This document shows, piece by piece, positions 7,524-54,005 of a stretch of DNA of 64,000 bases. The notes below the pieces were generated by a model. That model was not told where the DNA came from. It ran no database searches and saw only the letters and a list, made by a program, of their open reading frames with translations. Each line of letters begins with the position of its first letter. Position 1 is the stretch's first letter. The DNA comes from an uncultured delta proteobacterium (GTDB taxonomy: Bacteria; Desulfobacterota; Syntrophia; Syntrophales; UBA2185), in NCBI GenBank assembly GCA_963705275.1, contig OY970063.1:1329039-1393038 (forward strand). Direction: 5' to 3'. The position numbers and the translations under genes were made by a program.

Positions 7524-7532
7524 AAGACCTCC

Positions 7533-8015: not shown

Positions 8016-8028
8016 GTTTGCTCCAGGA

Positions 8029-8796: not shown

Positions 8797-8809
8797 ACAG
8801 TTTTACCCA

Positions 8810-19117: not shown

Positions 19118-20260
19118 ATGGATTTTGAATTAGACGATGAATTGAAGATGTTGAAGGAAATGTCATACAAATTTGCCCAGGCTGAGTTTACCGGTATATC
19201 CCATGAATGTGACGAGGGAGAAAAATACACCCCGGACATTCGCAGAAAGGCCGCTGAAAATGGTCTCATCGGGGCATGGATTCCCGAAGAATATGGCGGT
19301 GCAGGGGCGGGTTTTTTGGGCAATGCCATCATCACAGAAGAGCTGTCCAAAGTGGACATGGGAGTGGGCTTGAATGTCGTTGCCGCCACATTCGGCTGCG
19401 AATCCATACTACACTTCGGGTCGGAAGAGCAGAAAAAGACATACCTCCCGCCGGTATGCAGAGGGGAGTGGGTCAGTGCCGGGGCATTTACGGAGCCCAA
19501 TGCCGGCACAGATGTGGCGGGATACAAAACTAAGGCTGCTAAAGACGGAAACGACTATGTCATCAGCGGCAATAAAATGTTCATAACCAATGGCACTGTC
19601 TGCGACTTCATGGTAGCCCAGTGCATTACCAACCCGGAGGAAAAAAAGCACAACAGCTTCAGCCTTATCATAGTTAGAGCCGATACGCCGGGGATAACGA
19701 GAAACAAGATTCATGGGAAAATGGGTATCCGCTCCAGTGATACGGCAGAAATCGCTTTTGAGGATGTGCGGGTTCCTCGGACTAACCTGGTTGGCAAGGA
19801 AGGCAACGGCTTCCGGCAGTTGATGCATTTTTTTGATACAACAAGGGTATTGGTCGCCGCCCAGGCCCTCGGCCTTTCCGAAGCCTGTCTGGAGACAAGC
19901 ATCAAGTACGTCAAGGAAAGAACAGCATTTGGAGCCCCATTGGGTTCGTTCCAGCTGACCCAGATGAAACTGACGGAAATGGCAATCAAAATAGAGGCTC
20001 TCCGGGGTCTTATTTATAAATCGGCATGGCTTCTTGATGAGGGCAGGCCGGACTATACGCTGGCTGCGATGGCGAAGTACTGCGGAGGTCAGACGGCGGT
20101 CTTCTGCGCGAATTACGCCGTGGAACTGCACGGTGGATACGGTTACGTTGACGAGTACAACGTCCAGAAATGGTACCGTGACGCCAAAATTCTCGAACTT
20201 TACGAAGGAACTAAAGAAGCTGAAATCATGACCATCGGCAGAACTCTGCAGGCACGGTAG
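19118..20260 (+). CDS. Acyl-CoA dehydrogenase (short/medium-chain type)
   Basis: 380 aa with AGGAGG as RBS. The ACAD fold is indicated by AFTEPNAGTDVAG, FITNG, GKMGIRSSDTAEIAFEDVRVP and the C-terminal catalytic-Glu motif ILELYEGTKEAEIMTIGR. Confidence 0.85.
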   Translation: MDFELDDELKMLKEMSYKFAQAEFTGISHECDEGEKYTPDIRRKAAENGLIGAWIPEEYGGAGAGFLGNAIITEELSKVDMGVGLNVVAATFGCESILHFGSEEQKKTYLPPVCRGEWVSAGAFTEPNAGTDVAGYKTKAAKDGNDYVISGNKMFITNGTVCDFMVAQCITNPEEKKHNSFSLIIVRADTPGITRNKIHGKMGIRSSDTAEIAFEDVRVPRTNLVGKEGNGFRQLMHFFDTTRVLVAAQALGLSEACLETSIKYVKERTAFGAPLGSFQLTQMKLTEMAIKIEALRGLIYKSAWLLDEGRPDYTLAAMAKYCGGQTAVFCANYAVELHGGYGYVDEYNVQKWYRDAKILELYEGTKEAEIMTIGRTLQAR

Positions 20261-38232: not shown

Positions 38233-39213
38233 TTACAACAGGGCTTGATGATCTTTTACCATATCTATATCCATCTTGATGTTGCGCCCCTGCGTTGTCA
38301 GATAATTGCCGATCATCAGGCCATTTGCACCGGCAAGCATAACCCAGGATTGGTAATCCCTGAGAGTCACTTCTCTCCCGCCGCAGATAAGAATATTCTT
38401 GTCGGGATTAATAAATCTGAATATGGCGATGCACTTCAGCGCCTCCAGGGGCTTGAGCAGGGGTCTATCTTCCATCTTGGTACCGGCAATGGGATTAAGA
38501 AAATTTATCGGTATCCCGTCAACATCGAGTTCCTTCAGAGTAAAGGCCAGTTCCACGCGCTGCTCCCAGGTCTCACCAAGTCCCAGGATACCTCCCGAAC
38601 AGACCTTCATCCCTGCGGCCTTGGCAAGCTTGACAGTCTCAATATCCTCGTCATAGTTATGCGTGGTGCAAACTTCGTCAAAAAAACTCCGGGCCGTTTC
38701 CAGATTGTGATGATAAACGGCAATCCCTCCTTCTGCGAGCCTGCGCGCCATAGACTCGGTGAGCATCCCCAGAGAGGCGCAGACCGTGAGGGCCGTTTGT
38801 TTGCAAATGGCGGTGGCACTATGGCAGATGACATCCAGCTCCTCATCTTTCAGCATATATCCGCTTGTGACCATGGAATACCTGGTAGCTCCTCTCCTCT
38901 CCAATTCAATCGCGCTTTTCACAATCTCTTCTTCAGCCAATAGGGGATAGGTCTTGATCTCCGTTCTATGGTGAGCAGATTGGGCGCAGAAGGCGCAATC
39001 TTCGGAGCAGAAACCCGATTTGGCATTGATGATGGAACACAGAATGGTTTCTTCTTGCCTCCGCATTTTTTTGATTTTATGGGCGCAGAATAATAAGTCC
39101 ATCGTATCCTTTTCCTGAAGTTGTGCAAGTTCACAGGCATCTTCGTAGGAAAAGACATACCCGCCTTCCTTTATAATCTTCTCAGTTAGATCGATGAGTT
39201 GCTTGCTGAACAT
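38233..39213 (-). CDS. bioB: Biotin synthase (radical SAM)
   Basis: It has the CSEDCAFCAQS radical-SAM CxxxCxxC motif, GATRYSMVTSG and a C-terminal YLTTQGR-type motif (NYLTTQGRN). Confidence 0.9.
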   Translation of the reverse strand: MFSKQLIDLTEKIIKEGGYVFSYEDACELAQLQEKDTMDLLFCAHKIKKMRRQEETILCSIINAKSGFCSEDCAFCAQSAHHRTEIKTYPLLAEEEIVKSAIELERRGATRYSMVTSGYMLKDEELDVICHSATAICKQTALTVCASLGMLTESMARRLAEGGIAVYHHNLETARSFFDEVCTTHNYDEDIETVKLAKAAGMKVCSGGILGLGETWEQRVELAFTLKELDVDGIPINFLNPIAGTKMEDRPLLKPLEALKCIAIFRFINPDKNILICGGREVTLRDYQSWVMLAGANGLMIGNYLTTQGRNIKMDIDMVKDHQALL

Positions 39214-39309: not shown

Positions 39310-39341
39310 AAGTCAACCATATTTATATTTAGGGTTGACAA
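39310..39341. promoter_or_regulatory. Probable BirA operator (bioO) in the bioB/birA divergent region
   Basis: Inverted repeat aGTCAACC-N14(atatttatatttag)-GGTTGACa with 7-bp perfect arms and an AT-rich spacer. It resembles E. coli bioO (TGTAAACC...GGTTTACA) as I recall it. It lies 29 nt upstream of birA and about 100 nt upstream of bioB. Confidence 0.65.
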
Positions 39342-39369: not shown

Positions 39370-40356
39370 ATGCTAACGAAGCGGCAATTACTCATCTACT
39401 TAAAGGAGGGTAAGGGGACTTGGGTCTCCGGCGAACTCCTCGCCCATAAAATGGCGGTTTCCCGGTCGGCTGTTTGGAAACATATAGGCAGTTTAAGAAA
39501 CGATGGCTATGTGATCGAATCGTCGCGAAAAAAGGGATACCTCCTCCGGGAGACGTCAGATTTGCTTCTCGCAGATGAGATCCGGGAAGGGCTGAACACA
39601 AGTGTCTTCGGTAAGGGAGAAATTATTTATTTCAGGGAAACGGATTCCACCAATGTAAGGGCTAAATTTCTGGCTGGCGACGGCGCTCCTGAGGGAACGG
39701 TGGTTGTCGCAGAGAAGCAGACACAGGGAAGAGGGCGAAAAGGAAGAACGTGGTTTTCGCCTGAAAGCGAGGGAATCTATACCTCCATTATCTTGAGGCC
39801 GCCTATTGCGCCAAATGAAGCGCCCAAACTCACCCTAATGGCGTCTGTGGCTGTAGCTGAAGCGTTGCTTTCCCTAACGTCCTTGAAGGTCAACATCAAA
39901 TGGCCCAACGATATACTGATTAACGGCAAAAAGGTCGCCGGCATTCTCACGGAAATAAGCACGGATATGGATAGAATCGATTATGTGGTCATCGGCGTCG
40001 GTGTAAATGTGAATACGTCGCGCAAAGGTCTCCACCTCGATATCAGACAGACGGCAACATCTGTTTTCATGGAAACGGGCAAGGTATTCCCAAGAATTGC
40101 TCTCCTTCGTGCGTTCCTGGAGTGGCTGGAAATATATTACGAAGCATTCACGGCAAAAGGGTTTGATCCAATATTGAATCGATGGAAGCATTTTGCTGAC
40201 ATAATCGGGCGGCGGATCAGTGTTGATCTCATGGACAGCATACGCGTGGGTACGGTTCTGGATGTAGACAAAGATGGGTTTCTGATCCTCCAGAATCACA
40301 AGGGAACGATTGAGAGGATAATTTCCGGGGACGTAACTCTATTGAGTCGTGAGTAG
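39370..40356 (+). CDS. birA: Bifunctional biotin-[acetyl-CoA-carboxylase] ligase / biotin operon repressor
   Basis: It has an N-terminal winged HTH (LAHKMAVSRSAVWKHIGSLRNDGYVIES), the biotin-binding loop QGRGRKGRTWFSPE and KWPNDILINGKKVAGIL. Confidence 0.9.
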   Translation: MLTKRQLLIYLKEGKGTWVSGELLAHKMAVSRSAVWKHIGSLRNDGYVIESSRKKGYLLRETSDLLLADEIREGLNTSVFGKGEIIYFRETDSTNVRAKFLAGDGAPEGTVVVAEKQTQGRGRKGRTWFSPESEGIYTSIILRPPIAPNEAPKLTLMASVAVAEALLSLTSLKVNIKWPNDILINGKKVAGILTEISTDMDRIDYVVIGVGVNVNTSRKGLHLDIRQTATSVFMETGKVFPRIALLRAFLEWLEIYYEAFTAKGFDPILNRWKHFADIIGRRISVDLMDSIRVGTVLDVDKDGFLILQNHKGTIERIISGDVTLLSRE

Positions 40357-40459: not shown

Positions 40460-41851
40460 TTGAACGAGCGAGGTTTATATAGTATGACAAGCAAGGGTAG
40501 GAAAAAACTGGAAATTGATGACAAAAGATACGTTTGGCATCCCTTTACTCAGATGCGGGGTTATGAAAAGGAAACGCCGCTCATCATTGAGGAAGGGAAT
40601 GGATGTCTGTTAAGAGATATGGAGGGTAACAGCTATATTGATGGTGTTTCTTCGCTCTGGACGAACGTTCATGGTCATAGGAAAAAGAAGCTTGACGACG
40701 CCATGAAAGGGCAGCTTGGCAAGATTGCCCATTCGACCCTGCTTGGACTTTCCAACATACCTGCAATCAGACTGGCAAAGAAATTAATCTCAATTGCACC
40801 GTCGGGATTGACGAAGGTATTTTATTCCGATAATGGCTCCACGGCCAACGAAATAGCCCTTAAGATGGCCTTCCAGTACCACCAGCAATGCCCCTCGGGA
40901 AACCGCAACAAGAAGAAATTTATTCGCCTGTCTAATGCCTATCATGGAGATACCATAGGCTCCGTGAGTGTGGGAGGAATTGATCTCTTCCATTCCATGT
41001 ATAAAGACCTGCTCTTTCCGTCTTTCAAGGCGGAAGCGCCCTACTGCTACCGCTGCACCTTCGGAAAGACCCATCCCGCCTGCGGGCTCGAGTGTCTGAC
41101 GCACGTTGAGGGCATCATGAAGGCTCACAGCCGAGAGATTGCCGCCCTTGTGATAGAGCCCTTGGTTCAGGGAGCCGGCGGTATACTGGTGCAGCCGCCG
41201 GGATACCTGAAAAGGGTGAGAGAGTTATGCACGCGTCACAAAATCTTCATGATAGCAGACGAAGTGGCAGTGGGATTCGGCAAGACAGGAAAGATGTTTG
41301 CCTGTGAACACGAAGGGGTTGTGCCGGACATTATGGCCCTGGCAAAGGGAATAGCAGGGGGGTACCTGCCGCTTGCGGCAACCCTGGTGACGGAGGAGAT
41401 CTATGAAGGATTTCTTGGGGAATTCGAGGAATTCAAAACATTTTTTCATGGACACACCTTTACGGGAAACCCCCTGGCATGCGCAGTAGCCATCGCCAGT
41501 CTTGAGGTCTTCAAAGAGGAGCGCACCCTTGACCGGCTCCAGAAAAAAATAGCGCACCTCGCAAAGAGGCTGAAACCGTTAGCCTCCCTGGTGCACGTCG
41601 GAGAGGTGCGCCAGTGCGGCATCATGGTGGGCATAGAACTCGTTTGCGATCAAAAGACAAAGCAGCTCTTTCCCCCGGAGAAGAGAACAGGGCATAGGGT
41701 CATTATGGAGGCGAGAAAGAGGGGCGTGATTATCCGCCCTTTAGGGGATGTCATTGTACTGATGCCGCCTTTGAGCATTTCTAAAAAGGAAATAGATCTC
41801 CTCTGTCAGACTGTTTACGATTCAATTCGAATGGTCACGGAAGAAAAGTGA
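40460..41851 (+). CDS. bioA: Adenosylmethionine-8-amino-7-oxononanoate aminotransferase
   Basis: Class-III aminotransferase with YVWHPFTQM, SDNGSTANEIALKMA, ADEVAVGFGKTGKMFACEH (PLP Lys) and HGHTFTGNPLACA. The likely start is ATG 40484. Confidence 0.9.
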   Translation: MNERGLYSMTSKGRKKLEIDDKRYVWHPFTQMRGYEKETPLIIEEGNGCLLRDMEGNSYIDGVSSLWTNVHGHRKKKLDDAMKGQLGKIAHSTLLGLSNIPAIRLAKKLISIAPSGLTKVFYSDNGSTANEIALKMAFQYHQQCPSGNRNKKKFIRLSNAYHGDTIGSVSVGGIDLFHSMYKDLLFPSFKAEAPYCYRCTFGKTHPACGLECLTHVEGIMKAHSREIAALVIEPLVQGAGGILVQPPGYLKRVRELCTRHKIFMIADEVAVGFGKTGKMFACEHEGVVPDIMALAKGIAGGYLPLAATLVTEEIYEGFLGEFEEFKTFFHGHTFTGNPLACAVAIASLEVFKEERTLDRLQKKIAHLAKRLKPLASLVHVGEVRQCGIMVGIELVCDQKTKQLFPPEKRTGHRVIMEARKRGVIIRPLGDVIVLMPPLSISKKEIDLLCQTVYDSIRMVTEEK

Positions 41852-41860: not shown

Positions 41861-42187
41861 ATGGCCGGTGATAAAGAAGCATCCAAGAAAAGCCTGGAGA
41901 AGGGGTCCTGGGAGGGCGTCTTCTATTTTCATCCGGATGACGGTATTTACCAGGATCATTTCCCCGGCTACCCGGTTGTCCCCGGAAGCCTGATAGTGCA
42001 CGCATTTTTGAAAGCTGCAGCGGATGCCGGCTTTTCGCCCGATTATCTTGCAATAGAGAACTTCAGGTTCAGAGAATTTCTCTCACCCGGCCATTACGTA
42101 TTTCGCATTGAATTTGATGAGAAGCAGCTGAACTGCCTCATTTATAGTGGGGAGAGGAAGCTAGTTAGGGGAGTCTTGAAAAGATGA
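41861..42187 (+). CDS. Short FabZ-like hotdog protein (His retained, helix Glu replaced by His)
   Basis: 108 aa. YQDHFPGYPVVPGSLIVHAFLKA aligns by eye to E. coli FabZ [22 protein letters not shown]. The N-terminal LPHRFPFLLVD strand is absent. Confidence 0.6.
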   Translation: MAGDKEASKKSLEKGSWEGVFYFHPDDGIYQDHFPGYPVVPGSLIVHAFLKAAADAGFSPDYLAIENFRFREFLSPGHYVFRIEFDEKQLNCLIYSGERKLVRGVLKR

Positions 42188-42969
42188 TACTCCATTTTTC
42201 GGGAAATCGTGCCCTCGTTCTGGGAGGCACCTGCGAGCTTGCTCTGGCTCTCGCTCACTCCATGATAGAGTCCGGCCTTTTTCCGCTGCTTACTTACAGA
42301 GACGATAAGGGTCTGAACCGAATCACAGAGGCTCTGCGGCCCTTCAACGGGAGATACGAGACTTGCTACCTGAATCTCGGCGATCGCGATTCGCTCGATT
42401 CCATCTTCACTCAAACAGGTGATGACCTCGACTTCCTGGTAGATTTTGCCCAGGGAAATTATGAGAGCCTTATCGCCGGAGCAGACGAAGAGAGCGTTTA
42501 CAGCTATTTCCTGGAGAACATCTCTTTTCGAGCCGAGATTCTGAAAAGGGTTGGAAGGGTAATGCTGAAGAAAAGAAAGGGGCGCCTCGTATATGTTTCT
42601 TCTGCAGCCGCGGCAAGACCCAATCCCGGCCAGGGATTTTATGCAGCCGCCAAGCTGGCTTCGGAGGCCCTCTATCGCAATATGGGACTGGAGCTGGGAG
42701 AACGCGGTGTGACCACGGTGAGTCTGCGTCCCGGCTATATCGAGGCGGGGCGGGGCAGAATCTATCTGCAAAAGCAGGATCGGAAAATTATTGAGATGAC
42801 ACCCATAAAGAGGGCGATAACAGGCGAAGAGATTGCCCACACCATACTCTTTCTTCTTTCCGACAGCGCCGCGGGCATCAACGCAACAGAGATTTCCATA
42901 GACGGCGGCCTCACTTCCGGAAAAGAAAGGCTGCCGAATTTCGCTAGCGAAATGGAAGAAAGGTCTTGA
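42184..42969 (+). CDS. Short-chain dehydrogenase/reductase, FabG-like (putative 3-oxoacyl-ACP reductase)
   Basis: 261 aa with a degenerate Rossmann motif (ALVLGGTCELALALA) and a catalytic Ser...YxxxK (VSSAAA...FYAAAKLASEAL). Its ATG overlaps the upstream stop (ATGA). Confidence 0.7.
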   Translation: MILHFSGNRALVLGGTCELALALAHSMIESGLFPLLTYRDDKGLNRITEALRPFNGRYETCYLNLGDRDSLDSIFTQTGDDLDFLVDFAQGNYESLIAGADEESVYSYFLENISFRAEILKRVGRVMLKKRKGRLVYVSSAAAARPNPGQGFYAAAKLASEALYRNMGLELGERGVTTVSLRPGYIEAGRGRIYLQKQDRKIIEMTPIKRAITGEEIAHTILFLLSDSAAGINATEISIDGGLTSGKERLPNFASEMEERS

Positions 42970-43371: not shown

Positions 43372-44010
43372 TTGGATATGACGCCCTTGGATAAGCTGAT
43401 CAATGGGAGAAGAAGCATCAGAAAGTACAAACCTGAATTTCCTCCCGAAGAATGGCTAAGAAACATGATACTTTCAGCCATGAGTGCGCCTTCTCCGACA
43501 AACAGCCAGCCCGTGCGGTTTATCCGCATCCTTTCTCCTGAGTTGAAGGACTGTCTGCTTGAGGCCATGCACGAAGGTGAAGAGTGTTTATTGGAGACTG
43601 TTAAGAATTCGACCAGTCAAAAAAGATTGAGAAACTGGGTAAATGCTTACCGCCGGTTCTCAGAGTTCATGTTCGATGCCCCGGTGCTTTTTGCTGTCGG
43701 GACTACCATGACATTTCTCAATCTTGCGGAAAAGCTGTTCCGCGCGGGCGCAATGGAACAAGGACATAAGAAACACAGGGACATTGACATCGCCGTAGGT
43801 CTGGCGCTTAAGGGATATCTCCTGAAGGGTGAGGAACTTGGCCTCGGTTCTTGTATTCTCACGGCCCCACTGATCTTTATCCAGGAACCCGAAGGTATCC
43901 TCGGTTTGAAAGGGATAGAGGTCAAATGCTTTGTTACAACAGGATATCCCGATGAAGAACCGGCTTATATCAAGAGAAAAGATATCACAGAGATTTACAG
44001 GGAAATCTGA
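43372..44010 (+). CDS. Nitroreductase-family (FMN) oxidoreductase
   Basis: 212 aa with the nitroreductase-fold signatures RRSIRKYKPE, APSPTNSQPVRFI and the C-terminal LGLGSCIL. Confidence 0.7.
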   Translation: MDMTPLDKLINGRRSIRKYKPEFPPEEWLRNMILSAMSAPSPTNSQPVRFIRILSPELKDCLLEAMHEGEECLLETVKNSTSQKRLRNWVNAYRRFSEFMFDAPVLFAVGTTMTFLNLAEKLFRAGAMEQGHKKHRDIDIAVGLALKGYLLKGEELGLGSCILTAPLIFIQEPEGILGLKGIEVKCFVTTGYPDEEPAYIKRKDITEIYREI

Positions 44011-45225
44011 ATGAAACGAAGGGTCGTTATTACCTCTATGGGTATTCTTTCATCTCTGGGCCATGAGTACGGGGAGATTATAAAGAATTTCAAAGAGAGA
44101 AACGTAAATTTTGAAAGGCCTGACTTTGACGGCGAAGTCGTTATCTCGCCCATCAGAAAATTCAACATCCGGGACTATACGGGTCCCTTCAAGGATGGCC
44201 GTTATCTAAACCGCGGCTCTCAGTTTGCCGTTGCCTCCGCCATCACAGCGATAAAGGATTCAGGCTGCAAAAAGAGCAATCTGGCGGAAGCAGGACTCTT
44301 TGTCGGCGCCGGTCCGAATCTCAATATCGGCGGCGAATTCCCGGATATAAAAGGAGGAGAAATCGACCGGGATGACCTTCAGGCCTTGTGGATCCTGAGA
44401 TTTCTGCCCAACACCGCCGCATCCGTTATCGCAAAGCTTTCAGATATACACGGCGAGAACCTCACGGTATGCACTGCCTGTGCAGCCTCCTTGCAGGCAA
44501 TCGGAGAGGCATTTCGCAAGATAAAGAACGGCTATCTTGATCGCGCCCTTGCCGGTGGCGGTGATTCTCGCCTTAGTCCGGGGGGGATTCTGGCCTACAA
44601 GAAGGCAAGCGCCCTCTATAAGGGTGATAGCAAACCCGATGCCGCAAGCAGGCCCTTTGATTGCAGCCGGTGCGGCTTTGTCCCCGGGGAAGGAGGGGCA
44701 TTTTTTCTACTGGAGGAATTGGAAGAGGCGCAAGAACGTGGGGCGCGGATATACGGCGAGATCTGTGGTTATGGAAGCTCCATGGACGCGTCCAGCATGA
44801 CGGCCCCGGAAGGTACAGGGAAATGGGGGAGGATGGCCGTGCTTTCCGCTTTACAGGAGGCGGAGCTATCTCCCTCAGAGATTGACGTGATTTCCACACA
44901 CGGAACAGGAACCCTCCTCAACGATGAAGGAGAGGCCAACCTCATAAATGAAATCTACAGTGGCTGCAATCCCCAGGTCATTGCACTCAAATCCTGGATA
45001 GGCCACGCGGCCTCCGCCTGCGGGGCTCTGGAGCTTGCCCTCTCACTAATCTTGATGCAGGAGAATTATATCCCCGAGATCAGAAACCTGGAGGACCCGT
45101 GCTGCAGCAAAATCAATTTTGTTCGAAACGGGGGAACTTTTTCATTTGGCACGTGCCTCATTGAAAATTTCGGGTTCGGGGGACAAAATGGCGCCATCAT
45201 CGTGAAACGGCATGAAGAGGTTTGA
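44011..45225 (+). CDS. Beta-ketoacyl-ACP synthase, FabF/FabB type (Cys-His-His)
   Basis: 404 aa with the active-site Cys in LTVCTACAASLQAIGEA and the two His in ISTHGTGT and WIGHAASACGALE. The C-terminus has NFGFGGQNGAIIV. The start abuts the upstream stop. Confidence 0.85.
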   Translation: MKRRVVITSMGILSSLGHEYGEIIKNFKERNVNFERPDFDGEVVISPIRKFNIRDYTGPFKDGRYLNRGSQFAVASAITAIKDSGCKKSNLAEAGLFVGAGPNLNIGGEFPDIKGGEIDRDDLQALWILRFLPNTAASVIAKLSDIHGENLTVCTACAASLQAIGEAFRKIKNGYLDRALAGGGDSRLSPGGILAYKKASALYKGDSKPDAASRPFDCSRCGFVPGEGGAFFLLEELEEAQERGARIYGEICGYGSSMDASSMTAPEGTGKWGRMAVLSALQEAELSPSEIDVISTHGTGTLLNDEGEANLINEIYSGCNPQVIALKSWIGHAASACGALELALSLILMQENYIPEIRNLEDPCCSKINFVRNGGTFSFGTCLIENFGFGGQNGAIIVKRHEEV

Positions 45226-45246: not shown

Positions 45247-45732
45247 ATGATAGAAAGTTATTTTATGGAAACACATACTATGAACGCAAATATTGTCATC
45301 AATACAGGACTCGCAGGCTTCATAATGCTTGACAGGATACTGGAAGTAAGCGCTTCCAGTATCGTTGGAACAAGACACTTTACCGGTGTGCCCGCCTATT
45401 TGCCTCTGGAGTCCCTTGCCCAGCTTGGCGCATTCCATATCCGTTATATAAGCGGGTTTTCCAGGCACGTCTTTCTTATAAAAATCGTGAGCTGCTCTAT
45501 CCCTCTAAAGATCGCCATGAAGGGAGAATATGTACTATCCGGAAATCTGCTCGGCCGGACGGACTCATCCTTTCGCTCATTTGTGAAAGCGGAAAGGGAC
45601 AAAGAAACAACCGCGGTGGCGGAGCTTCTATACGCCGCAGTTGATTACGATCATAATTTTAAAAAGGGAATATTGCATGACCACTACTCGAAGGTATTTT
45701 CATGTTTGCAGAGAGATTTAAAAACCGGCTGA
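45247..45732 (+). CDS. FabZ/FabA-like hotdog protein (second copy)
   Basis: 161 aa. FIMLDRILEV (compare FabZ FLLVDRVLDF), RHFTG (compare GHFPG) and LPLESLAQLGAF (compare LILEAMAQATG). The start is uncertain, with Met candidates at positions 1, 7 and 12. Confidence 0.55.
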   Translation: MIESYFMETHTMNANIVINTGLAGFIMLDRILEVSASSIVGTRHFTGVPAYLPLESLAQLGAFHIRYISGFSRHVFLIKIVSCSIPLKIAMKGEYVLSGNLLGRTDSSFRSFVKAERDKETTAVAELLYAAVDYDHNFKKGILHDHYSKVFSCLQRDLKTG

Positions 45733-46847
45733 TGCTTCAGCGACAGACGGGGCTATACCGCGAACCGCCAGAAGTGAAAGAGAGAGACGGAAAATACCTC
45801 AATATAGAGGGACGGAGCGTGTTGAATTTCGCCTCCAATGACTACCTGGGGCTTGGCGTGTCCGAGGAACTGCGACGGAGTGCCGCGCGAAATTTTGAGA
45901 GGTATGGAACGTCATCTTCTTCATCGCGCCTGGTGTCAGGAAATTACTCTATAATAAACAAGGCGGAGAAAGAATATGCGTCATATTTCGGTTATGGAGA
46001 TGCCATATTTTTCCCGAGCGGTTACCAGGCCAACTTGGGCATTCTTTCCACCATTCTTGAAAGGGGAGATACGGTAATTTTTGACAAGCATATCCATGCA
46101 AGCTCTGTAAAGGGAATGACGATGAGCGGAGCGAATTTCCTCGGGTACAACCATAACTCCATGCCCCACCTTGCAAAGAGACTGAAAATGTGCGGTCACC
46201 GGCAGGTTGCCGTTCTGACGGAGTCCCTCTTTAGTATGGACGGGGATCTTCTGTATCTGAATGGCCTGGGAGAATTGAAGGACCGTTGCCGTTTCCTGGC
46301 AATCGTCGACGAAGCCCACGCCTTCGGCGCCATAGGTCAAGGAGGGCGCGGTATTGCGGGTTCTGTTGCGGATATTGCCGTTGGAACCTTTGGGAAGGCC
46401 TTCGGTTTTTTCGGCGCCTTCGTTCTTCTTCCTGAGGGATTCAAGGAATACCTCTTTAACTTTTCTTCCCCACTCATTTATACCACGACCCTCCCCGAGG
46501 CTCATGCGGCCACGGCAATAGATATTCTGGAAATTATCGGGCGAAGTGAAGACAGGAGGAGACATCTCAGAGATGCAAGTCAGCTTCTCAAAGAAGGCTT
46601 ACGTCTTGAGGGATTTCGGGTGACCGGTGATGCCCACATACTGGCAATTGAAATCGGTGATGAGACCAAGGCTGTGAATACAGCCCGGAAGCTCCTCGAA
46701 AAAAATATATTTGTCCTTCCAGCCCGCTATCCTACAGTTCCTCTGCATCGGTCCATACTGAGAATAGGTGTAACGGCACTTCATGAAGAGGAGGATATTA
46801 AGACATTCATTGAGCGTATAAGGGCAGCTGGTGAAGAGCTTAAATAA
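45702..46847 (+). CDS. bioF: 8-amino-7-oxononanoate synthase
   Basis: Alpha-oxoamine synthase pattern: NFASNDYLGL, DEAHAFG and the PLP lysine in GTFGKAFG. Confidence 0.85.
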   Translation: MFAERFKNRLMLQRQTGLYREPPEVKERDGKYLNIEGRSVLNFASNDYLGLGVSEELRRSAARNFERYGTSSSSSRLVSGNYSIINKAEKEYASYFGYGDAIFFPSGYQANLGILSTILERGDTVIFDKHIHASSVKGMTMSGANFLGYNHNSMPHLAKRLKMCGHRQVAVLTESLFSMDGDLLYLNGLGELKDRCRFLAIVDEAHAFGAIGQGGRGIAGSVADIAVGTFGKAFGFFGAFVLLPEGFKEYLFNFSSPLIYTTTLPEAHAATAIDILEIIGRSEDRRRHLRDASQLLKEGLRLEGFRVTGDAHILAIEIGDETKAVNTARKLLEKNIFVLPARYPTVPLHRSILRIGVTALHEEEDIKTFIERIRAAGEELK

Positions 46848-47538
46848 GAAGATTGGAAATCTGTTTGTTGTGGGAACCGATACAGGGGTGGGAAAGACTG
46901 TGCTCGCTCTTCTGATGATGCAATTCTTTTTCGCAAGGGGATACAGCCCTTTTTATCTCAAGCCTGTACAGACGGGATGCAGGGATGCAAATGATGCCGA
47001 CAGTGATGCAAGATTCATTTATCGGCATGTCGGACCTTTGAAGGGTAAAGAACCTGCTGAATCAGTAATCTACTGCTTCAATAATCCAAAGGCCCCCCTG
47101 TATGCCGCACGCGATGAGGGACAGTCAATAGATCTATCTAAGATAGAGAGGGTCGTATCCGAGAAGGCCAAGGCCCGCTCCCCCGTAATTCTCGAAGGTG
47201 CGGGTGGCGTGCTTGTCCCTGTAGCGGGAAAGAAACTTATAGTTGACATTATCCGCTTAGTAAATGGAACTCCCGTCATTGCCGCAAGGGCGGGATTAGG
47301 GACAATTAACCATACCCTCCTTACGATCGAAGCCTTGGAGGAAAGGGATCTCAAGCCTCTCGGGGTTGTCTTCATTGATGCCGGAGAAATCGAAACGCCG
47401 CTTGAAATGATCAAGGAAAACAAGTCTGCCATTGAAAGGACTTCGGGCATAAAGGTAGCCGGCGTTGTCGGCAGGATTCATGATTTTTCACGACCACCGC
47501 TTGATTGCTACAAACCATTGGCGAAAATGTTTGGTTGA
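46831..47538 (+). CDS. bioD: Dethiobiotin synthetase
   Basis: 235 aa with the P-loop FVVGTDTGVGKTV, the EGAGG motif (ILEGAGGVLVP) and GTINHTLLT. Its GTG start overlaps the bioF 3' end. Confidence 0.85.
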   Translation: MKSLNKKIGNLFVVGTDTGVGKTVLALLMMQFFFARGYSPFYLKPVQTGCRDANDADSDARFIYRHVGPLKGKEPAESVIYCFNNPKAPLYAARDEGQSIDLSKIERVVSEKAKARSPVILEGAGGVLVPVAGKKLIVDIIRLVNGTPVIAARAGLGTINHTLLTIEALEERDLKPLGVVFIDAGEIETPLEMIKENKSAIERTSGIKVAGVVGRIHDFSRPPLDCYKPLAKMFG

Positions 47539-48023: not shown

Positions 48024-50000
48024 ATGGGAGATACAGAAAAGCTTGAATTGAAGGAAGTTTATCCCGTTCCTGATTGGGCGCGCAAGCAAGCGTACATTAA
48101 GAGCAGGGCAGAGTACGAGAAACTATGGAAGCGTTCCATCAAAGAGCCTGACGCTTTCTGGGCGGAGATCGCGACTGAGTATGTGGATTGGTTCAAGAAA
48201 TGGGACAAGGTGGAAGACTATAATTTTGATGTGCAGAAGGGGCCCATTTACGTGAAGTACTTTGAGGGCGGCAAGCTGAACGTCTCGTACAACTGTTTGG
48301 ACAGGCACCTTAAGACTCGTGGGAACAAGATCGCCATCCAGTGGGAAGGCAATGAGCCCACGGAGGACAAGTCCTACACCTACAAGGAGCTGTATACGGA
48401 AGTCTGTAAGTTTGCCAACGTCCTGAAGTCGTTGGGAGTGAAGAAAGGTGACCGGGTATGCTTCTTTCTTCCCATGATCCCCGAGCTTTCCATCGGGATG
48501 CTGGCGTGCTCCAGGATTGGCGCTATCCACAACATAGTATTCGGCGGCTTCAGCGCCGAGTCCTTACGCGACAGAATTCAGGATAGCGAAGCTAAGATAC
48601 TGGTGACCTGCGACGGGACCATGCGGGGTGCCAAGGCAGTTCCGCAGAAGGGCGGTGCGGACGAGGCGCTGAAGACATGTCCCTCCGTCGAGAAATCTAT
48701 CGTGGTTAAAAGGGTAGGCGACAAGATCGCGTGTGAAATGAAGGCAGGCAGAGATATCTGGTGGCATGAAGTGATGGCAAAGGCAAGTGATAAGTGCGAA
48801 CCGGAGTGGATGGATGCAGAAGATCCCCTCTTTATCCTGTACACGTCAGGTTCGACGGGAAAGCCGAAGGGCGTCATGCACACGACAGGCGGGTATCTGG
48901 TGTACGTGGCCTATACACATAAGATGATTTTCGACTACCATGAGAATGACATTTTCTGGTGCACTGCCGACATCGGCTGGGTAACCGGGCATAGTTACAT
49001 TGTGTACGGCCCTCTTTGTAACGGCGCCACGTCGGTGATGTTTGAGGGAGTACCAAATTATCCTGATGTGAGCCGCTTCTGGAAGGTCTGCGAAAAGTAT
49101 AAGGTGACGATTTTTTACACTGCTCCGACGGCCATCCGTGCCATTGCGAAGGAGGGGACAGATTGGGTAAAGAAGGCCAATATATCATCGCTGCGCCTCT
49201 TAGGCACGGTTGGCGAGCCGATTAACCCCGAGGCATGGCACTGGTATCACCACAATATCGGACGTGATGAAGTGCCTATTGTAGATACATGGTGGCAGAC
49301 CGAGACGGGAGGCATTCTCATTACGCCTCTGCCCGGCGCCATTGATCTCAAACCAGGCAAGGCTACAGTCCCCTTTATGGGGGTATATCCAGCCATTATT
49401 GATGAGACCGGCGCGGAGATCACTGCAACGGTTGCCAGCGGGCCCCTCTGTATCAAGAAGCCCTGGCCTGGGATCATGAGGAGGGTCTATGGGGACCCCA
49501 TGAGGTTCCAGGAGACCTACTTTGTGCAGCGCCCCGGATTCTATTACACCGGTGATGGAGCCACCAGGGACGAAGACGGCTATTATCAGCTTATGGGCCG
49601 GATCGACGACGTTATCAATGTCTCCGGGCACAGACTGGGGACGGCGGAAATTGAAAGCGCCCTCGTTGCCCATGAAAAGGTGGCCGAGGCCGCCGTTGTC
49701 GGCTATCCACATGACATCAAGGGACAGTCCATTTACGCATATGTAACTCTCAAGACGGGTGTGCAGAAATCTGACGACTTGAGGAAGGAACTTGTCGCAC
49801 ACGTCAGGAAGCTCATCGGGCCGACTGCCACACCGGAGAAAATCCAGTGGGCCGATGGTTTGCCGAAGACGAGAAGCGGCAAGATCATGAGGAGAATACT
49901 TAGGAAGGTGGCTGCGAATGAGATCAGTGATCTGGGAGATACCACTACCCTGGCAGACCCTTCTGTCGTTGACGATATAGTGAAAAACAGGGTGCTATAG
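48024..50000 (+). CDS. acs: Acetyl-CoA synthetase (AMP-forming)
   Basis: 658 aa with the Acs-specific N-terminus ([16 protein letters not shown]), the AMP-binding motif [34 protein letters not shown] and the C-terminal [14 protein letters not shown]. Confidence 0.92.
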
Positions 50001-50016
50001 AAGAAAGGAGGACGAC

Positions 50017-50787
50017 GTGAATATCGTAGCATGTGTAAAGCAGGTTCCGGACACAGAGACCCTTATCAAGGTCAAGCCTGATGGATCGGGCATCGACGAA
50101 ACTGGCATCAAATGGGTGATGAATCCGTATGACGAGTTTGGCGTGGAAGAAGCCCTGAAACTGAAGGAAAAGTTCGGTGGAGATGTTACCATCGTTTCTG
50201 TCGGTCCAGCGAGGGCATTGGAGACTATCAGAACAGCACTTGCCATGGGAGCTGATAAGGGAATACATATAAACGATTCGGCCTTTGAAGGTGCTGATGC
50301 CTATAGCATAGCCTCTGCTTTGGCCGCGGCAATCAAAGGTATTCCACACGACATTATCTTTTGCGGACAGCGGGCCATTGATGACGATGCCGGTCAGGTA
50401 GGTTCCGTCCTTGCAGAATTATTGGGTATCCCCCAGGTAACCTTTGTTACGAAGCTCGACGTGGAAGGTACCTCCATAAAGGTAATAAGACCTATTGAAG
50501 GGGCTCAACTTCTCATTGAAAGTTCGCTGCCATGTGTCGTCACCGCGCAGAAAGGACTGAACGAGCCACGCTATGCATCGCTTCCGGGAATAATGAAGGC
50601 AAAGAAGAAACCTGTCGATGTTAAGGATGCTGCAGGGTTGGGAATAACTGTCGCCCCAAAGGCAAAGGTCGCTAAGACCGTACCCCCTCCTGCCAGGCCT
50701 CCCGGAAAGATTATCTGCGGTGAGGAACCGGCGGAAAAGGCCAGAGAACTGGCGAAACTGCTCAGGGAAGAGGCGAAGGTTATCTGA
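50017..50787 (+). CDS. etfB: Electron transfer flavoprotein, beta subunit
   Basis: 256 aa with a GTG start after AAGGAGG. (M)NIVACVKQVPDTE is the classic EtfB N-terminus, and IIFCGQRAIDDDAGQVG is also present. Confidence 0.9.
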   Translation: MNIVACVKQVPDTETLIKVKPDGSGIDETGIKWVMNPYDEFGVEEALKLKEKFGGDVTIVSVGPARALETIRTALAMGADKGIHINDSAFEGADAYSIASALAAAIKGIPHDIIFCGQRAIDDDAGQVGSVLAELLGIPQVTFVTKLDVEGTSIKVIRPIEGAQLLIESSLPCVVTAQKGLNEPRYASLPGIMKAKKKPVDVKDAAGLGITVAPKAKVAKTVPPPARPPGKIICGEEPAEKARELAKLLREEAKVI

Positions 50788-50841
50788 GAAAGCTTGGTGC
50801 TGAGCTTTCTTAATGATCTCTAATATATGGAGGAAAGTGAA

Positions 50842-51819
50842 ATGGCGAAAGGTGTATGGATCGTGGCGGAGCAGAGATATGGAGCTTACCGCAAGATAAG
50901 TTTTGAACTTGTCAGTGCAGCCAGAAAACTTGCCGATCAGCTCGGGGAAGAAGTGGGCGCCGTCCTGCTTGGTTCCGGGATTGAAGCGATTGCCGGTGAA
51001 TTAGGAAAATATGGTGCAGATAAAGTCTATGTGGCGGATAACGCCCTTTTTGAACCCTACACGACAGACGCACACGCGGCGGCTGTTGCAAAGCTGGTTA
51101 AGGAACAGAATCCTTCTATTCTACTTCTTGGCGCTTCCGCCCAGGGCAAGGATCTATCTTCTCGCCTCGTGGGCAAGCTGGCAACTGGAATGGCAACGGA
51201 CTGCGTTGACTTAAAGATAGCCGATGGCAAATTGATTTCTATAAGACCCATGTACGCCGGGAAATGCAACGGTGAAGTCGTTGTATCCGCATTTCCCCAG
51301 ATGGCGTCGCTCCGGCCGAACGTATTTCCCGCAGTCGAAAATCCTAAAACGGCGGAAGTCGTCAAATTTGACCCGGGTCTGGACGCAAGTCAACTGAAGA
51401 CAAAGGTGCTTGAGATACAGAAGGATACATCCGGCAAGGTCGATCTCACAGAAGCAAACATAATCGTATCCGGAGGACGCGGGATGAAAGGGCCGGAAAA
51501 TTATGTGATAATCGAAGAACTGGCGGACGTTTTGGGAGCCACAGTAGGGGCATCGAGGGCAGCAGTGGATGCCGGGTGGAGACCGCAGAAAGACCAGGTC
51601 GGGCAGACCGGAAAGGTCGTCTCCCCTAATCTTTACATTGCCTGCGGCATTTCCGGGGCGATTCAGCATCTTGCCGGTATGGGCTCTTCCAAGTACATCG
51701 TCGCAATCAATAAGGATCCGGATGCTCCCATTTTCGCAAGGGCTGATTATGGAATTGTGGACGACCTTTTCAAGGTTGTCCCGGAACTGACTAAGGAAGT
51801 CAAAAAACTTCTGGCGTAA
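50842..51819 (+). CDS. etfA: Electron transfer flavoprotein, alpha subunit
   Basis: Start placed at ATG 50842 (GGAGGA 7 nt upstream). The FAD-binding C-terminal domain has IVSGGRGM, ASRAAVDAGW, QVGQTGKVVSPNLYIACGISGAIQH and IVAINKDPDAPIF. Confidence 0.9.
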   Translation: MAKGVWIVAEQRYGAYRKISFELVSAARKLADQLGEEVGAVLLGSGIEAIAGELGKYGADKVYVADNALFEPYTTDAHAAAVAKLVKEQNPSILLLGASAQGKDLSSRLVGKLATGMATDCVDLKIADGKLISIRPMYAGKCNGEVVVSAFPQMASLRPNVFPAVENPKTAEVVKFDPGLDASQLKTKVLEIQKDTSGKVDLTEANIIVSGGRGMKGPENYVIIEELADVLGATVGASRAAVDAGWRPQKDQVGQTGKVVSPNLYIACGISGAIQHLAGMGSSKYIVAINKDPDAPIFARADYGIVDDLFKVVPELTKEVKKLLA

Positions 51820-51875
51820 TGAAACAAACCTGGGGGTGCTGAATCCACCCCCATTTTTTTGTAGCGAGGAGACTT

Positions 51876-54005
51876 ATGGAACTGTCAAAGTTTTCAGTCG
51901 GCAACGAAGGAAGAGAGGTTTTCTGGAATGCTGAGAATTTTGAGGGACTCCTTTTTGCCTTTACTGCTATCGCCATGGCCATTTTTGCCTACGGTATTTA
52001 CAGAAGGTGGCAGATGTGGACCGCCCTCGGCAAACCGGAAATCAGAAAAGACCAGATGACGGAGCGAGTTAAACTTCTTCTGAAAAACGGCCTGTTTCAG
52101 ATTAAGACCTTCAGGGACGCCTATCCGGGAATTATGCATGGATTAATATTTTTCGGATTCATCGGACTGATATTCGGCGCTGCCTTTGATGCGACAGAAT
52201 TTCATGTGGGTGAACCGTATGGTTTCCCCTTCCTGATAGGAAAATTCTATCTTATATTTTCTTTCCTGATGGAGGTATTGGGTTTATTCGTTCTCGCCGG
52301 GGTATTTATGGCACTGAACAGACGATACGTCACCAAGCCCGATCGTCTCGGTTATAAAGACAAGCCGGATAACACGCCTGATGATGCAATCGTACTTCTT
52401 CTTCTGGGCGGCATCATTCTTACGGGATTTGTGATCGAGGCATTGAGGCTCCACGTCACCAATCCGCCATGGGAAGTCTGGTCGTTCGCCGGCTATACCT
52501 TGGCAAAGGCTTTCACCGGCGTTGACGACAATACCGCGAGAATCCTTCACAAGGTGATGTGGTGGACTCATACCTTTATGGCTTTAGGCTTTATCGCCTA
52601 CATCCCCTATTCACGGCTGGTGCATATGATTACCACCCCTGCCAATCACTTCATGGCGTCTCTGAAACCAGTGGGCAACATTGAACCGATACGCGATTTT
52701 GAAACAGCGGAATCCTTCGGCGCAGGGCAACTCGAGGATTTCACCTGGAAGCAGATATTCGATTCCGACGCCTGCACCCGCTGCGGACGATGCCAGGATG
52801 GTTGCCCGGCTTATCTGTCGGGAAAAGCCCTTTCGCCAAAGAAGGTGGTGCAGGATCTAAAAACCTACTGGCTTGAGCGGGCCCCACTGGTAGTGGCGAC
52901 GAAAAAGGCCGCCGGCAAAGCTGGGGAAGGCACGGCACCGGAAATACCGGCGCCGCAAAAGGCGATGGTGGGAGAGGTTATCGATCTTCATGAATTGTGG
53001 GCCTGCACAAACTGCATGTATTGTATGGAGCACTGTTCATCGTCCATTGAACATGTTCCCAAAATCGTCAACATGAGGCAGTACAAGGTTCTGACGGAAG
53101 CAGATTTTGCCCCCGAACTCCAGTTAACCTACAGAAATATGGAAAACAACTCGAATCCTTGGGGCATCGGTTCCCATCTCAGGTCCGACTGGGCAAAGGA
53201 TTTGGGCGTCAAGACCATGGCTGAAGATCCAAATGTGGAGTATCTATTCTATGTCGGGTGCTCCGGATCCTTCGATGACAGGGGAAAGAAGGTATCTGTG
53301 GCCTTTGCGAAGATCCTCCAGACAGCGGGGGTCAGTTTCAGTATTCTCGGCACTGAAGAGGGATGCTGCGGCGATTCAGCCATGAGGGGAGGGAATGAAT
53401 ATCTCTCTCAGACTTTGATGCAAACGAATATTGAGATCATGAATGGCTATGGCGTCAAGAAAATCATCTGCACGTGTCCTCACGGGTATAATACGCTGAA
53501 GAAGGATTATCCCCACTTCGGCGGCAACTATGAAGTATATCATCATACTGAGATCATCGCTAATCTGATTGCAGCAGAAAAGATCACCATGAAAAAACCC
53601 ATGGACGGTCTGTTCACTTATCACGACTCATGCTTCCTAGGCAGATACAATAACATCTATGATCAGCCAAGAAAGATTCTCGCCGCCATCCCCGGCATGA
53701 AGTTTACAGAAATGGATCGTAAACTTGACAAGAGCTTCTGTTGCGGCGCGGGCGGGGCGAGAATGTGGATGGAAGAGCATGACGGTGAGAGGATCAATAA
53801 TATGAGAACCGACCAGGCTATTGACGTGAATGCAACTAATATTGCCGTCGCATGCCCGTTCTGCCTGACCATGCTAACCGATGGTATCAAGACAAGAGAA
53901 AAGGAAGAAAAAATGACTTCCCTGGACATTGCCGAAGTCGTCTGGCGGGCAATGGGCCTGGAAGAGGAGAAACCGCCGGCAGATGTGTGTGCACCGACCG
54001 AATAG
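51876..54005 (+). CDS. Membrane-bound Fe-S oxidoreductase (N-terminal multi-TM domain + 2x[4Fe-4S] + two CCG/HdrD-like domains), putative ETF:menaquinone oxidoreductase
   Basis: 709 aa. About 6 TM helices with conserved His occupy residues 1-250. It also has CTRCGRCQDGCP, CTNCMYCMEHC and CCG motifs (EGCCGDS; SFCCGAGG). It lies directly downstream of etfBA. Confidence 0.75.
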   Translation: MELSKFSVGNEGREVFWNAENFEGLLFAFTAIAMAIFAYGIYRRWQMWTALGKPEIRKDQMTERVKLLLKNGLFQIKTFRDAYPGIMHGLIFFGFIGLIFGAAFDATEFHVGEPYGFPFLIGKFYLIFSFLMEVLGLFVLAGVFMALNRRYVTKPDRLGYKDKPDNTPDDAIVLLLLGGIILTGFVIEALRLHVTNPPWEVWSFAGYTLAKAFTGVDDNTARILHKVMWWTHTFMALGFIAYIPYSRLVHMITTPANHFMASLKPVGNIEPIRDFETAESFGAGQLEDFTWKQIFDSDACTRCGRCQDGCPAYLSGKALSPKKVVQDLKTYWLERAPLVVATKKAAGKAGEGTAPEIPAPQKAMVGEVIDLHELWACTNCMYCMEHCSSSIEHVPKIVNMRQYKVLTEADFAPELQLTYRNMENNSNPWGIGSHLRSDWAKDLGVKTMAEDPNVEYLFYVGCSGSFDDRGKKVSVAFAKILQTAGVSFSILGTEEGCCGDSAMRGGNEYLSQTLMQTNIEIMNGYGVKKIICTCPHGYNTLKKDYPHFGGNYEVYHHTEIIANLIAAEKITMKKPMDGLFTYHDSCFLGRYNNIYDQPRKILAAIPGMKFTEMDRKLDKSFCCGAGGARMWMEEHDGERINNMRTDQAIDVNATNIAVACPFCLTMLTDGIKTREKEEKMTSLDIAEVVWRAMGLEEEKPPADVCAPTE

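Follow-up and report, generated by a model that had tools for sequence, protein, structure and literature searches.

How organisms of the Desulfovibrio type make pimelate without BioC/BioH, BioI, BioW or BioZ has been a question since their extended biotin (bio) cluster was noticed in 2004, and a related cluster in an uncultured delta proteobacterium of the Syntrophales raises the more specific question of which enzyme would reduce the enoyl intermediates carried by the acyl carrier protein (ACP). This cluster lies in a stretch of 64,000 nucleotides (assembly GCA_963705275.1, contig OY970063.1, positions 1,329,039 to 1,393,038 of the forward strand), which is called the window here and to which all positions refer unless another locus is named. 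It is an operon of the order birA-bioA-HD1-SDR-ACP-NTR-KAS-HD2-bioF-bioD on the plus strand, with bioB divergent on the minus strand. HD1 and HD2 stand for two hotdog-type proteins, SDR for a short-chain dehydrogenase/reductase, KAS for a FabF-like 3-ketoacyl-ACP synthase, and NTR for the nitroreductase-family protein that is the subject of this study. We consider it somewhat more probable than its opposite, with a rough probability of 0.55, that NTR is the dedicated flavin mononucleotide (FMN)-dependent enoyl-ACP reductase of this cluster and acts on glutaconyl-ACP and 2,3-dehydropimeloyl-ACP. The assignment is made by analogy. A non-canonical reductase of this kind had been put forward in the original prediction from the window sequence, and the idea is still the best hypothesis and has gained comparative support; it is also unproven, and it had been published before (PMC10102598).

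The extended bio cluster of Desulfovibrio was studied by Trotter et al. (bioRxiv January 2021; Front Microbiol 2023, PMC10102598). In D. vulgaris Hildenborough, the cluster genes and one gene outside the cluster, which encodes the nitroreductase DVU1220, are specifically needed when the organism grows in the absence of biotin. DVU1220 is predicted to contain FMN and a [4Fe-4S] cluster, the SDR DVU2561 is also required, and the reductase of fatty acid synthesis (FAS) is essential in this organism (PMC10102598). The Desulfovibrio bio clusters are devoid of an in-cluster nitroreductase, and a nitroreductase-like gene is present in the bio clusters of Syntrophobacter fumaroxidans and Desulfobacter vibrioformis, whose products share more than 40% identity with each other and are distant from DVU1220. 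The authors suggested that the nitroreductase may supply the missing enoyl-ACP reductase and named the promiscuous FAS enzyme DVU2064 as the alternative (PMC10102598).

NTR belongs to this described but biochemically uncharacterised family, for which the enoyl reductase hypothesis has thus already been published. It shares with the in-cluster nitroreductases the cluster type, in which FabZ-like, SDR, ACP and FabF-like genes stand amid the bio genes, as well as the proposed role, and it differs in its host lineage, an uncultured member of the Syntrophales. NTR has 44-45% identity to its counterpart in a metagenome-assembled genome (MAG) of an uncultured Syntrophobacter sp. (L072) and 46-55% identity to those of Desulfobacteraceae MAGs, all of these being MAG relatives and not the two named species. 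In the literature searched, we found neither a later biochemical follow-up nor any described nitroreductase-fold enoyl-ACP reductase, in agreement with the original prediction, whose author knew of none.

The nitroreductase and its proposed reaction

The open reading frame (ORF) of NTR starts with a TTG codon, encodes 212 residues and ends with a TGA codon at 44008-44010. Translation from an in-frame ATG at 43378 would yield a protein of 210 residues, as in the closest homologues in the databases, and the true start is therefore ambiguous by two codons. The gene begins 4 nucleotides after the ACP stop (43367), and the ATG of KAS at 44011 follows the NTR stop directly with no gap, so that the tight packing described earlier is borne out; the abutting stop and start codons make a translational coupling of NTR and KAS plausible. 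The translation also contains the two segments that had been quoted, RRSIRKYKPE and PSPTNSQPVRFI, and the ORF, the Pfam match and the fold model agree that this is a nitroreductase-family protein. With 754 database homologues at E<=1e-3, of which the best come from Syntrophales MAGs and reach 96% identity, and with the conserved synteny described below, NTR is a genuine, conserved gene rather than an ORF arisen by chance.

The Pfam family PF00881 (Nitroreductase) matches residues 10-192 of NTR with E=9.8e-22 and 78.3 bits, compared to a gathering score of 23.5. The NCBIfam models all remain far under their cutoffs, with FbiB models as best matches, followed by RutE and BluB. In Pfam and NCBIfam, the SDR, NMO/FabK and FabV models that represent enoyl reductase families were unmatched by NTR, which was recognized by nitroreductase-family models only, and an Fe-S motif was not found in its sequence. 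The FMN-binding elements of the nitroreductase superfamily are the phosphate-binding RxSxR and the segment APSxxNxQP. Across 83 members of the NTR family, no variation was seen at R13, S15, R17, P40, S41 and P47, and conservation is at least 90% at R14, N44 and Q46. Because these elements are invariant, the FMN site can be read as intact. Conservation specific to this family was noted for R49, R95, K152, C161, C186 and E195.

An AlphaFold2 model of the monomer, calculated from an 89-sequence alignment, reached a predicted local distance difference test score (pLDDT) of 93.9 and a predicted template modelling score (pTM) of 0.89. When this model was compared with the PDB by Foldseek, the top 50 matches were all of the nitroreductase fold, with template modelling (TM) scores of up to 0.82. 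The Clostridioides difficile proteins 3GFA and 3EO8 came first, followed by iodotyrosine deiodinase and FbiB's C-terminal domain (TM about 0.75), with BluB ranking lower, and a sequence-profile search of the PDB agreed with this ranking.

In the pathway that we propose, NTR would be a homodimeric, FMN-containing enzyme of a self-contained pimeloyl-ACP module that is independent of BioC/BioH. The dicarboxylate intermediates would be carried by the cluster ACP, and KAS would extend a malonyl-derived primer twice by malonyl units, from C3 to C5 and then to C7. Each 3-oxo group would be reduced by SDR, and each 3-hydroxy group would be dehydrated by the HD1/HD2 pair. As malonyl units are converted to pimeloyl-ACP in two full elongation cycles, two enoyl reductions are needed, and in these NTR would transfer a hydride from N5 of the reduced FMN to C3 of the trans-2-enoyl-ACPs, which would be glutaconyl-ACP and then 2,3-dehydropimeloyl-ACP. 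The products would be glutaryl-ACP and finally pimeloyl-ACP, which would be consumed by BioF. Of these features of NTR, the fold, the intact FMN-phosphate-binding motif, the conserved place between ACP and KAS and the membership in the operon are shown, whereas its substrate, reaction and electron donor are inferred from the comparisons described here.

The enoyl reductase role is favoured because the condensing enzyme, the ketoreductase, the dehydratase and the ACP all have candidates in the cluster, whereas the enoyl reductase has none but NTR, which besides SDR is the only other redox protein of the module. The functions that the original prediction had assigned to the neighbouring genes, namely a condensing enzyme, a ketoreductase and dehydratase-like proteins, were recovered with Pfam and NCBIfam. 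Its further claim that the cluster encodes no enoyl reductase of the FabI, FabK, FabL or FabV type stands insofar as no FabK- or FabV-type protein was found among the bio-cluster proteins in Pfam and NCBIfam scans, and it requires a nuance with respect to SDR. The best Pfam match of SDR is the family adh_short_C2, which carries the title "Enoyl-(ACP) reductase", and yet the protein possesses the motif YAAAK, that is, the Yx3K spacing, which is found in 62 of 64 SDR orthologues. In SDR proteins, Yx3K marks ketoreductases and Yx6K marks FabI and FabL. Canonical FAS or enoyl reductase genes were absent from the window ORFs of at least 180 residues up to about 29 kb, the rest of the genome being outside this survey.

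Conservation of NTR between ACP and KAS

A scan anchored on NTR, with one genome per species, yielded 76 loci with NTR identities of 40-90%, which span Syntrophales, Desulfobacterales, Desulfarculales, Syntrophobacter, SAR324 and others. Among the testable species-level loci, the nearest recognised cluster gene upstream of NTR is ACP in all cases (66/66), and the nearest one downstream is KAS in 64 of 65. The median spacers are about 4-10 nucleotides to ACP and 0 nucleotides to KAS. The loci with enough flanking sequence show the order HD1-SDR-ACP-NTR-KAS-HD2-bioF-bioD, to which exceptions exist (L042, L056, L073 and the loci without SDR). Within 6.5 kb, NTR is linked to KAS in 35 of 35 loci, to ACP and to HD2 in 34 each, to bioB in 28 and to birA in 25.

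The exceptions show that the make-up of the cluster is somewhat fluid. L042 possesses only bioB-bioA-ACP-NTR-KAS at the site, without SDR, HD1, HD2, bioF and bioD, and ACP-NTR-KAS is likewise kept in the other clusters that have no SDR (L027, L069, L159 and L163). As such clusters exist, host enzymes can evidently substitute for single steps of the module. Several of these loci display further peculiarities. In L159, a gene of 262 codons between ACP and NTR (7216-8004) is not an SDR and matches PF00905 (transpeptidase/beta-lactamase type). In L056, from a Deltaproteobacteria MAG, an ORF of 2145 residues is inserted between ACP and NTR (3557-9994); judged by its translation, its N terminus resembles a Ser/Thr protein kinase and is followed by an ATPase-like region. 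The cluster of L073 (1533-7279) ends directly after NTR, beyond which lie a glyoxalase-like gene and apparent type I-C cas genes, as judged from translations, an arrangement that reflects either a rearrangement or a misassembly. L031 (contig JBQVLY010000058.1) is binned as a Methanosarcinaceae archaeon and carries a bacterial-type HD1-SDR-ACP-NTR-KAS with 48-64% identity to the window proteins; it is probably a binning contamination and not an archaeal instance.

A second scan was anchored on KAS and made in metagenome contigs. The best 80 loci had KAS identities of 58-97%, and 69 of them were testable for NTR, which is located directly upstream of KAS in 66. Retention upstream was counted in the 38 loci with at least 3.2 kb of upstream sequence, where HD1 and ACP were found in 37 each and SDR and NTR in 35 each. 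The lone miss of ACP, in L144, is an artefact of the distance filter, as the ACP gene is present there and overlaps the KAS start. Downstream of KAS, HD2 was retained in 54 and bioF in 55 of 56 loci. Because its retention equals that of SDR, NTR is as much a core component of the cluster as the ketoreductase. Both this retention and the linkage of NTR to KAS and ACP, which is tighter than that to bioB, argue for a role in the ACP-dependent module.

The limits of the family were approached with an exhaustive HMMER search of 1.84 billion representatives. Only 39 sequences reached E<=1e-30 and 1054 reached E<=1e-3, suggesting a small subfamily with a soft edge. Versions of the motifs RFSxxMFxAP and GLGSCIxTAP persist in proteins of only 28-39% identity. 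Where the genomic context of distant members (25-37% identity to the window protein) was retrieved, these are again flanked by ACP and KAS, bioF following at a short distance, and a Spirochaetales MAG (L157) is among these loci. The module of L157 is split in two parts, and ACP-NTR-KAS stays together. The first 1501 nucleotides of this locus encode a FabD-like acyltransferase, an ApeI-like hotdog protein and an SDR, about 7 kb upstream of ACP-NTR-KAS-bioF. The persistence of the ACP-NTR-KAS synteny at such low identity, and in loci where other genes of the module are absent from the site or stand apart (L042, L157), also favours the enoyl reductase role.

In a rough neighbour-joining tree without bootstraps, the bio-cluster members examined, including those of only 25-35% identity, form one clade, which is separate from the FbiB-like, P0413-type and 3GFA-type groups. 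A neighbouring clade is represented by P0415, whose gene lies beside that of CofD and close to those of CofE and CofC, which is a neighbourhood of F420 biosynthesis. This clade scores about 145 bits with the FbiB C-terminal model, and an hhalign comparison between it and the bio-NTR family gave a probability of 99.9% at 30% identity.

P0413 is 32% identical to the window NTR and belongs to a recurrent non-biotin cluster that resembles type II FAS or polyketide synthase (PKS) clusters and that was found on L165 (1-6126) and three other contigs. Its gene order is a 160-residue ORF, a FabA/ApeI-like hotdog protein, a ketosynthase (KS) with the N-terminal domain only, a full KS, a ketoreductase (KR), the nitroreductase, an ACP of 133-134 residues and a KR, and it continues with a 150-residue ORF followed by four radical-SAM genes and a hexapeptide transferase. 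Neither a canonical enoyl reductase nor biotin genes are visible in this cluster. We consider the position of a related nitroreductase between a KR and an ACP, in a cluster devoid of a recognizable enoyl reductase, as a further argument for the proposed role of NTR.

Related enzymes and the electron donor

Experiments point to a need for a nitroreductase in this pathway solely in the case of DVU1220, and this need in the absence of biotin supports the enoyl reductase role of NTR. DVU1220 is of the same nitroreductase family and genetically tied to the same pathway; it differs from NTR in being encoded outside the bio cluster and in its predicted [4Fe-4S] cluster, for which NTR has no motif.

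Other members of the fold reduce conjugated C=C bonds, which likewise favours the proposed reaction. FbiB's C-terminal domain (FbiB-C) reduces the C=C bond of the enolpyruvyl carboxylate in dehydro-F420-0 with FMNH2 and was assayed with a separate flavin reductase that supplied the FMNH2 (PMC6450877). FbiB-C (PDB 4XOM, 4XOO and 4XOQ) shares with NTR the fold and the superfamily branch, and its reaction, in which a C=C bond adjacent to a carboxylate is reduced, is of the class proposed here. However, the FbiB model TIGR03553 reaches only 39.2 bits on NTR compared to a cutoff of 249.55, the two proteins belong to separate clades, NTR is flanked by ACP and KAS with no CofC, CofD or CofE genes nearby, and the substrate of FbiB-C is a deazaflavin-linked enolpyruvyl compound and not an acyl-ACP. 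CLA-ER of Lactobacillus plantarum (PDB 4QLX and 4QLY; Hou et al. 2015) is, as cited in PMC8174450, a flavin-dependent enone reductase that acts on a fatty acid. It is among the nitroreductase-family PDB matches of NTR and reduces the C=C bond of an α,β-unsaturated carbonyl compound. The match is a weak N-terminal one (E=2.3e-5, residues 6-67), and the substrate of CLA-ER is a free oxo-fatty acid and not an ACP thioester, with no known link to biotin. The established enoyl-ACP reductases FabI/InhA, FabL (an SDR with Yx6K), FabK (an FMN-containing TIM barrel) and FabV are alike in the reaction proposed for NTR but have no homology to it. FabK shows that an FMN-dependent enoyl-ACP reduction is feasible.

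As FbiB-C, the nearest characterised relative of NTR, uses external FMNH2 and DVU1220 is predicted to contain a [4Fe-4S] cluster, the physiological reductant of NTR may not be NAD(P)H. To our knowledge, BluB and iodotyrosine deiodinase do not use NAD(P)H directly either. By analogy, an assay with NAD(P)H alone could give a false negative.

Alternative roles

Several points weigh against NTR as the enoyl-ACP reductase, the support for which is association and analogy throughout. DVU1220 is a distant relative, whose phenotype transfers by analogy only, and host FAS enoyl reductases, such as DVU2064 in D. vulgaris, could do the step. The nearest solved structures, 3GFA (CD3205) and 3EO8 ("BluB-like"), are the best profile matches of NTR (E about 1e-19) with TM scores of 0.74-0.82 over the full length, but they are only 24-25% identical to it, belong to a separate clade and have no known function or link to ACP or biotin. 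The closest characterised relatives also include iodotyrosine deiodinase and BluB, which have a quite different chemistry. Furthermore, NTR is missing from about 4-8% of the clusters. Three of the 69 testable metagenome loci (L134, L137 and L144) are without it while all other module genes are intact, and since the Desulfovibrio clusters also do without the gene, it is not indispensable in cis. The absence of the gene from otherwise identical clusters, which the original prediction had named as an observation that would refute it, is seen in this minority of clusters and is not decisive.

One of these losses can be traced. In L134, a vestige, SLEDLINKRRSD followed by a stop, is found after the ACP stop and matches the N-terminal motif of the family, and the gaps on both sides of KAS (5345-5992 and 7215-7984) contain copies, 96-97% identical to each other, of a repeat of about 220 + 90 bp. 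This repeat has the appearance of a small mobile or repetitive element that took the place of NTR. The vestige and the flanking repeat copies make a secondary deletion evident. The clusters without NTR weaken the view that the gene is strictly required in cis, and they do not refute its function, because D. vulgaris needs a nitroreductase that is encoded elsewhere and because one of the losses is such a secondary deletion.

These observations bear directly on the possibility, which we consider unlikely, that a housekeeping FAS enoyl reductase of the FabI, FabK or FabV type reduces the dicarboxylate enoyl-ACPs and that NTR has another redox job in the ACP/KAS module, for example the regeneration of a reduced cofactor, the preparation or proofreading of the primer, or a step peculiar to intermediates with a free ω-carboxyl group. 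The promiscuous DVU2064 was presented as an equal alternative by Trotter et al. (PMC10102598), and the clusters without NTR as well as the five without SDR, which indicate that module genes are dispensable in cis, are in line with it. However, the simplest chemistry from malonyl to pimeloyl needs no other redox step, and the other three FAS activities have in-cluster candidates, presumably since substrates with a charged ω-carboxyl group fit the housekeeping enzymes poorly. It is for this poor fit that E. coli masks the carboxylate via BioC/BioH. In addition, D. vulgaris needs DVU1220 despite its essential FAS reductase (PMC10102598). Improbable in our view is that NTR is a carbonyl reductase, acting on 3-oxoacyl-ACPs or aldehydes, and that SDR or a host enzyme carries out the enoyl step. 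The analogy here is RutE, a nitroreductase-family malonic semialdehyde reductase, whose NCBIfam model matches NTR weakly (E=1.1e-7) and only in the generic N-terminal FMN-binding segment (residues 4-70). The loci that keep NTR without SDR and the assignment of SDR to the Pfam family that contains FabI would fit this role, but the Yx3K motif and the FabG models as best NCBIfam matches of SDR speak against it, as do the presence of both genes in most clusters and the requirement for both DVU2561 and DVU1220 in D. vulgaris (PMC10102598). The specific variant with SDR as a FabL-like enoyl reductase and NTR as the ketoreductase was rated unlikely on the basis of the same motif and FabG-like matches.

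A role of NTR after pimelate, for example in delivering electrons to the radical-SAM enzyme BioB, appears marginally less probable again. BioB needs a low-potential electron donor, and NTR is encoded in what is putatively a biotin-regulated operon, yet nitroreductase-fold enzymes are typically two-electron hydride-transfer catalysts. The prediction of FMN and a [4Fe-4S] cluster for DVU1220 (PMC10102598) would also suit an electron carrier, but NTR has no Fe-S motif, its linkage to KAS and ACP exceeds that to bioB, many loci with the ACP-NTR-KAS triad have no bioB in reach, and a related nitroreductase is found together with KS, KR and ACP in a biotin-free cluster. NTR as electron donor to BioB was therefore rated unlikely, as the bioB linkage is weaker than that to ACP and KAS. 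It is very improbable that NTR is a generic nitroreductase or flavin reductase that has no role in biotin synthesis and is retained by mere inheritance. Generic nitroreductases are abundant and promiscuous, and NTR has disappeared on at least two occasions with no visible decay in the remaining cluster; on the other hand, the gene occupies the same position at identities of 25-96% across orders of the Desulfobacterota and in a Spirochaetales MAG, the cluster-borne members examined are one clade, the retention equals that of the ketoreductase, and the NTR and KAS codons abut.

The operon and its other genes

The features of the operon are listed in Table 1.

Table 1. Features of the extended bio operon, with window positions and the basis of each assignment
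Feature	Positions	Strand	Basis or context
bioB, biotin synthase, divergent	38233..39213	-	TIGR00433, 398 bits vs cutoff 225
BirA-operator-like palindrome, GTCAACC-N14-GGTTGAC	39312..39339		bioB/birA divergent intergenic region, about 30 nt upstream of birA
birA-like, first gene of the plus-strand unit	39370..40356	+	context; helix-turn-helix (HTH)-plus-ligase reading by inspection of translation
bioA, adenosylmethionine-8-amino-7-oxononanoate transaminase	40460..41851	+	TIGR00508, 552 bits vs cutoff 405
HD1, 108-residue FabA/FabZ-like hotdog protein, catalytic His without Glu	41861..42187	+	PF07977, E=6.7e-8
SDR, FabG-like candidate 3-oxoacyl-ACP reductase (Yx3K)	42184..42969	+	best NCBIfam matches are FabG models, all under cutoff
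ACP, dedicated, 133 residues	42966..43367	+	PF00550, E=2.8e-8
NTR, nitroreductase fold, putatively FMN-binding, candidate enoyl-ACP reductase	43372..44010	+	PF00881, AlphaFold2 model, Foldseek, synteny
KAS, FabF-like, Cys-His-His motifs	44011..45225	+	PF00109 and PF02801; TIGR03150, 270 bits, under the 494-bit cutoff
HD2, 161-residue divergent hotdog-like protein, FabZ Glu motif PLESLAQ without His motif	45247..45732	+	orthologue alignment
bioF, 8-amino-7-oxononanoate synthase, pimeloyl-ACP consumer	45702..46847	+	TIGR00858, 329 bits, best match, under the 426-bit cutoff
bioD, dethiobiotin synthase	46831..47538	+	TIGR00347, 131 bits vs cutoff 83

The palindrome upstream of birA resembles the half-sites of bioO, the BirA operator of E. 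coli. A single site in the window fits the pattern GTNAACC-N13-15-GGTTNAC, which in the related loci was found at 76 sites in 73 of 156 loci, compared to 0.4 sites expected from shuffled sequences. In the 45 of these 76 sites that were listed, it adjoins the leading gene of the operon. Combined with the close spacing of the genes, the palindrome suggests that NTR belongs to a biotin-responsive transcription unit, which is putatively controlled by BirA, and its place at the head of the operon also favours a role of NTR in biotin synthesis as the enoyl reductase. The birA orthologue of L159 contains the domains HTH_11, BPL_LplA_LipB and BPL_C, and birA is kept beside the cluster in relatives. 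A scan of the bio operon for promoters and terminators remained at chance level.

The two hotdog proteins were compared with the reference sequence and the catalytic residue numbers of E. coli FabZ. The His of the HFPG motif is conserved in 62 of 63 HD1 orthologues, in which the position of the catalytic Glu is never Glu and mostly His. In HD2, for which Pfam and NCBIfam gave no match, the Glu is present in all 63 orthologues and the His motif is deleted in all 63. As these are complementary halves of the FabZ catalytic pair, the alignments suggest that HD1 and HD2 may act as a dehydratase in the form of an obligate heterodimer, whose single active site would be composed of both.

The Cys-His-His triad motifs of KAS are present in most orthologues. 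The dedicated ACP is unusually long. Its orthologues have lengths of 109-143 residues, and that of the window carries a C-terminal extension of about 55 residues and has its serine in the context GAESID instead of the usual DSL. This extension is not common to the long ACP of the P0413-type cluster, with which the PP-binding core alone aligns.

In the wider window, the region downstream of the bio operon (48024-54005) contains, judging from translations, a 658-residue acetyl-CoA synthetase-like ORF, ORFs resembling the beta and alpha subunits of electron transfer flavoprotein (ETF), and a 709-residue ORF for a membrane-associated, Cys-rich oxidoreductase-like protein of the Fe-S type. An acyl-CoA dehydrogenase is encoded at 19118-20260, and such a gene set is typical of syntrophic degraders of fatty acids or aromatic compounds. 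Type IV pilus genes (PilO, secretin and PilY1-like) are found at 189-7523 and an LplA/B-type lipoate-protein ligase at 13523-14368.

Implications

If NTR is the enoyl-ACP reductase, the pathway would be a self-contained mini-FAS that acts on free dicarboxylates. The gene set of ACP, KAS, SDR, HD1/HD2 and NTR is small enough to be reconstituted and may find use in pimelate and biotin engineering; for an experimental test, the conserved ACP-NTR-KAS triad would be the unit to choose. A broader view, to which we give slightly less than an even chance, is that NTR founds a structurally new, nitroreductase-fold class of enoyl reductases, next to FabI/L, FabK and FabV, for ω-carboxy-enoyl-ACPs in the BioC/BioH-independent pathway of anaerobes, which would probably receive its electrons from FMNH2 or a ferredoxin-type donor instead of directly from NAD(P)H, and that related nitroreductases act as trans-acting enoyl reductases in other type II FAS/PKS-like clusters, such as those of the P0413 type with their radical-SAM genes. 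Such a new structural class of enoyl reductases would presumably escape inhibitors directed at FabI.

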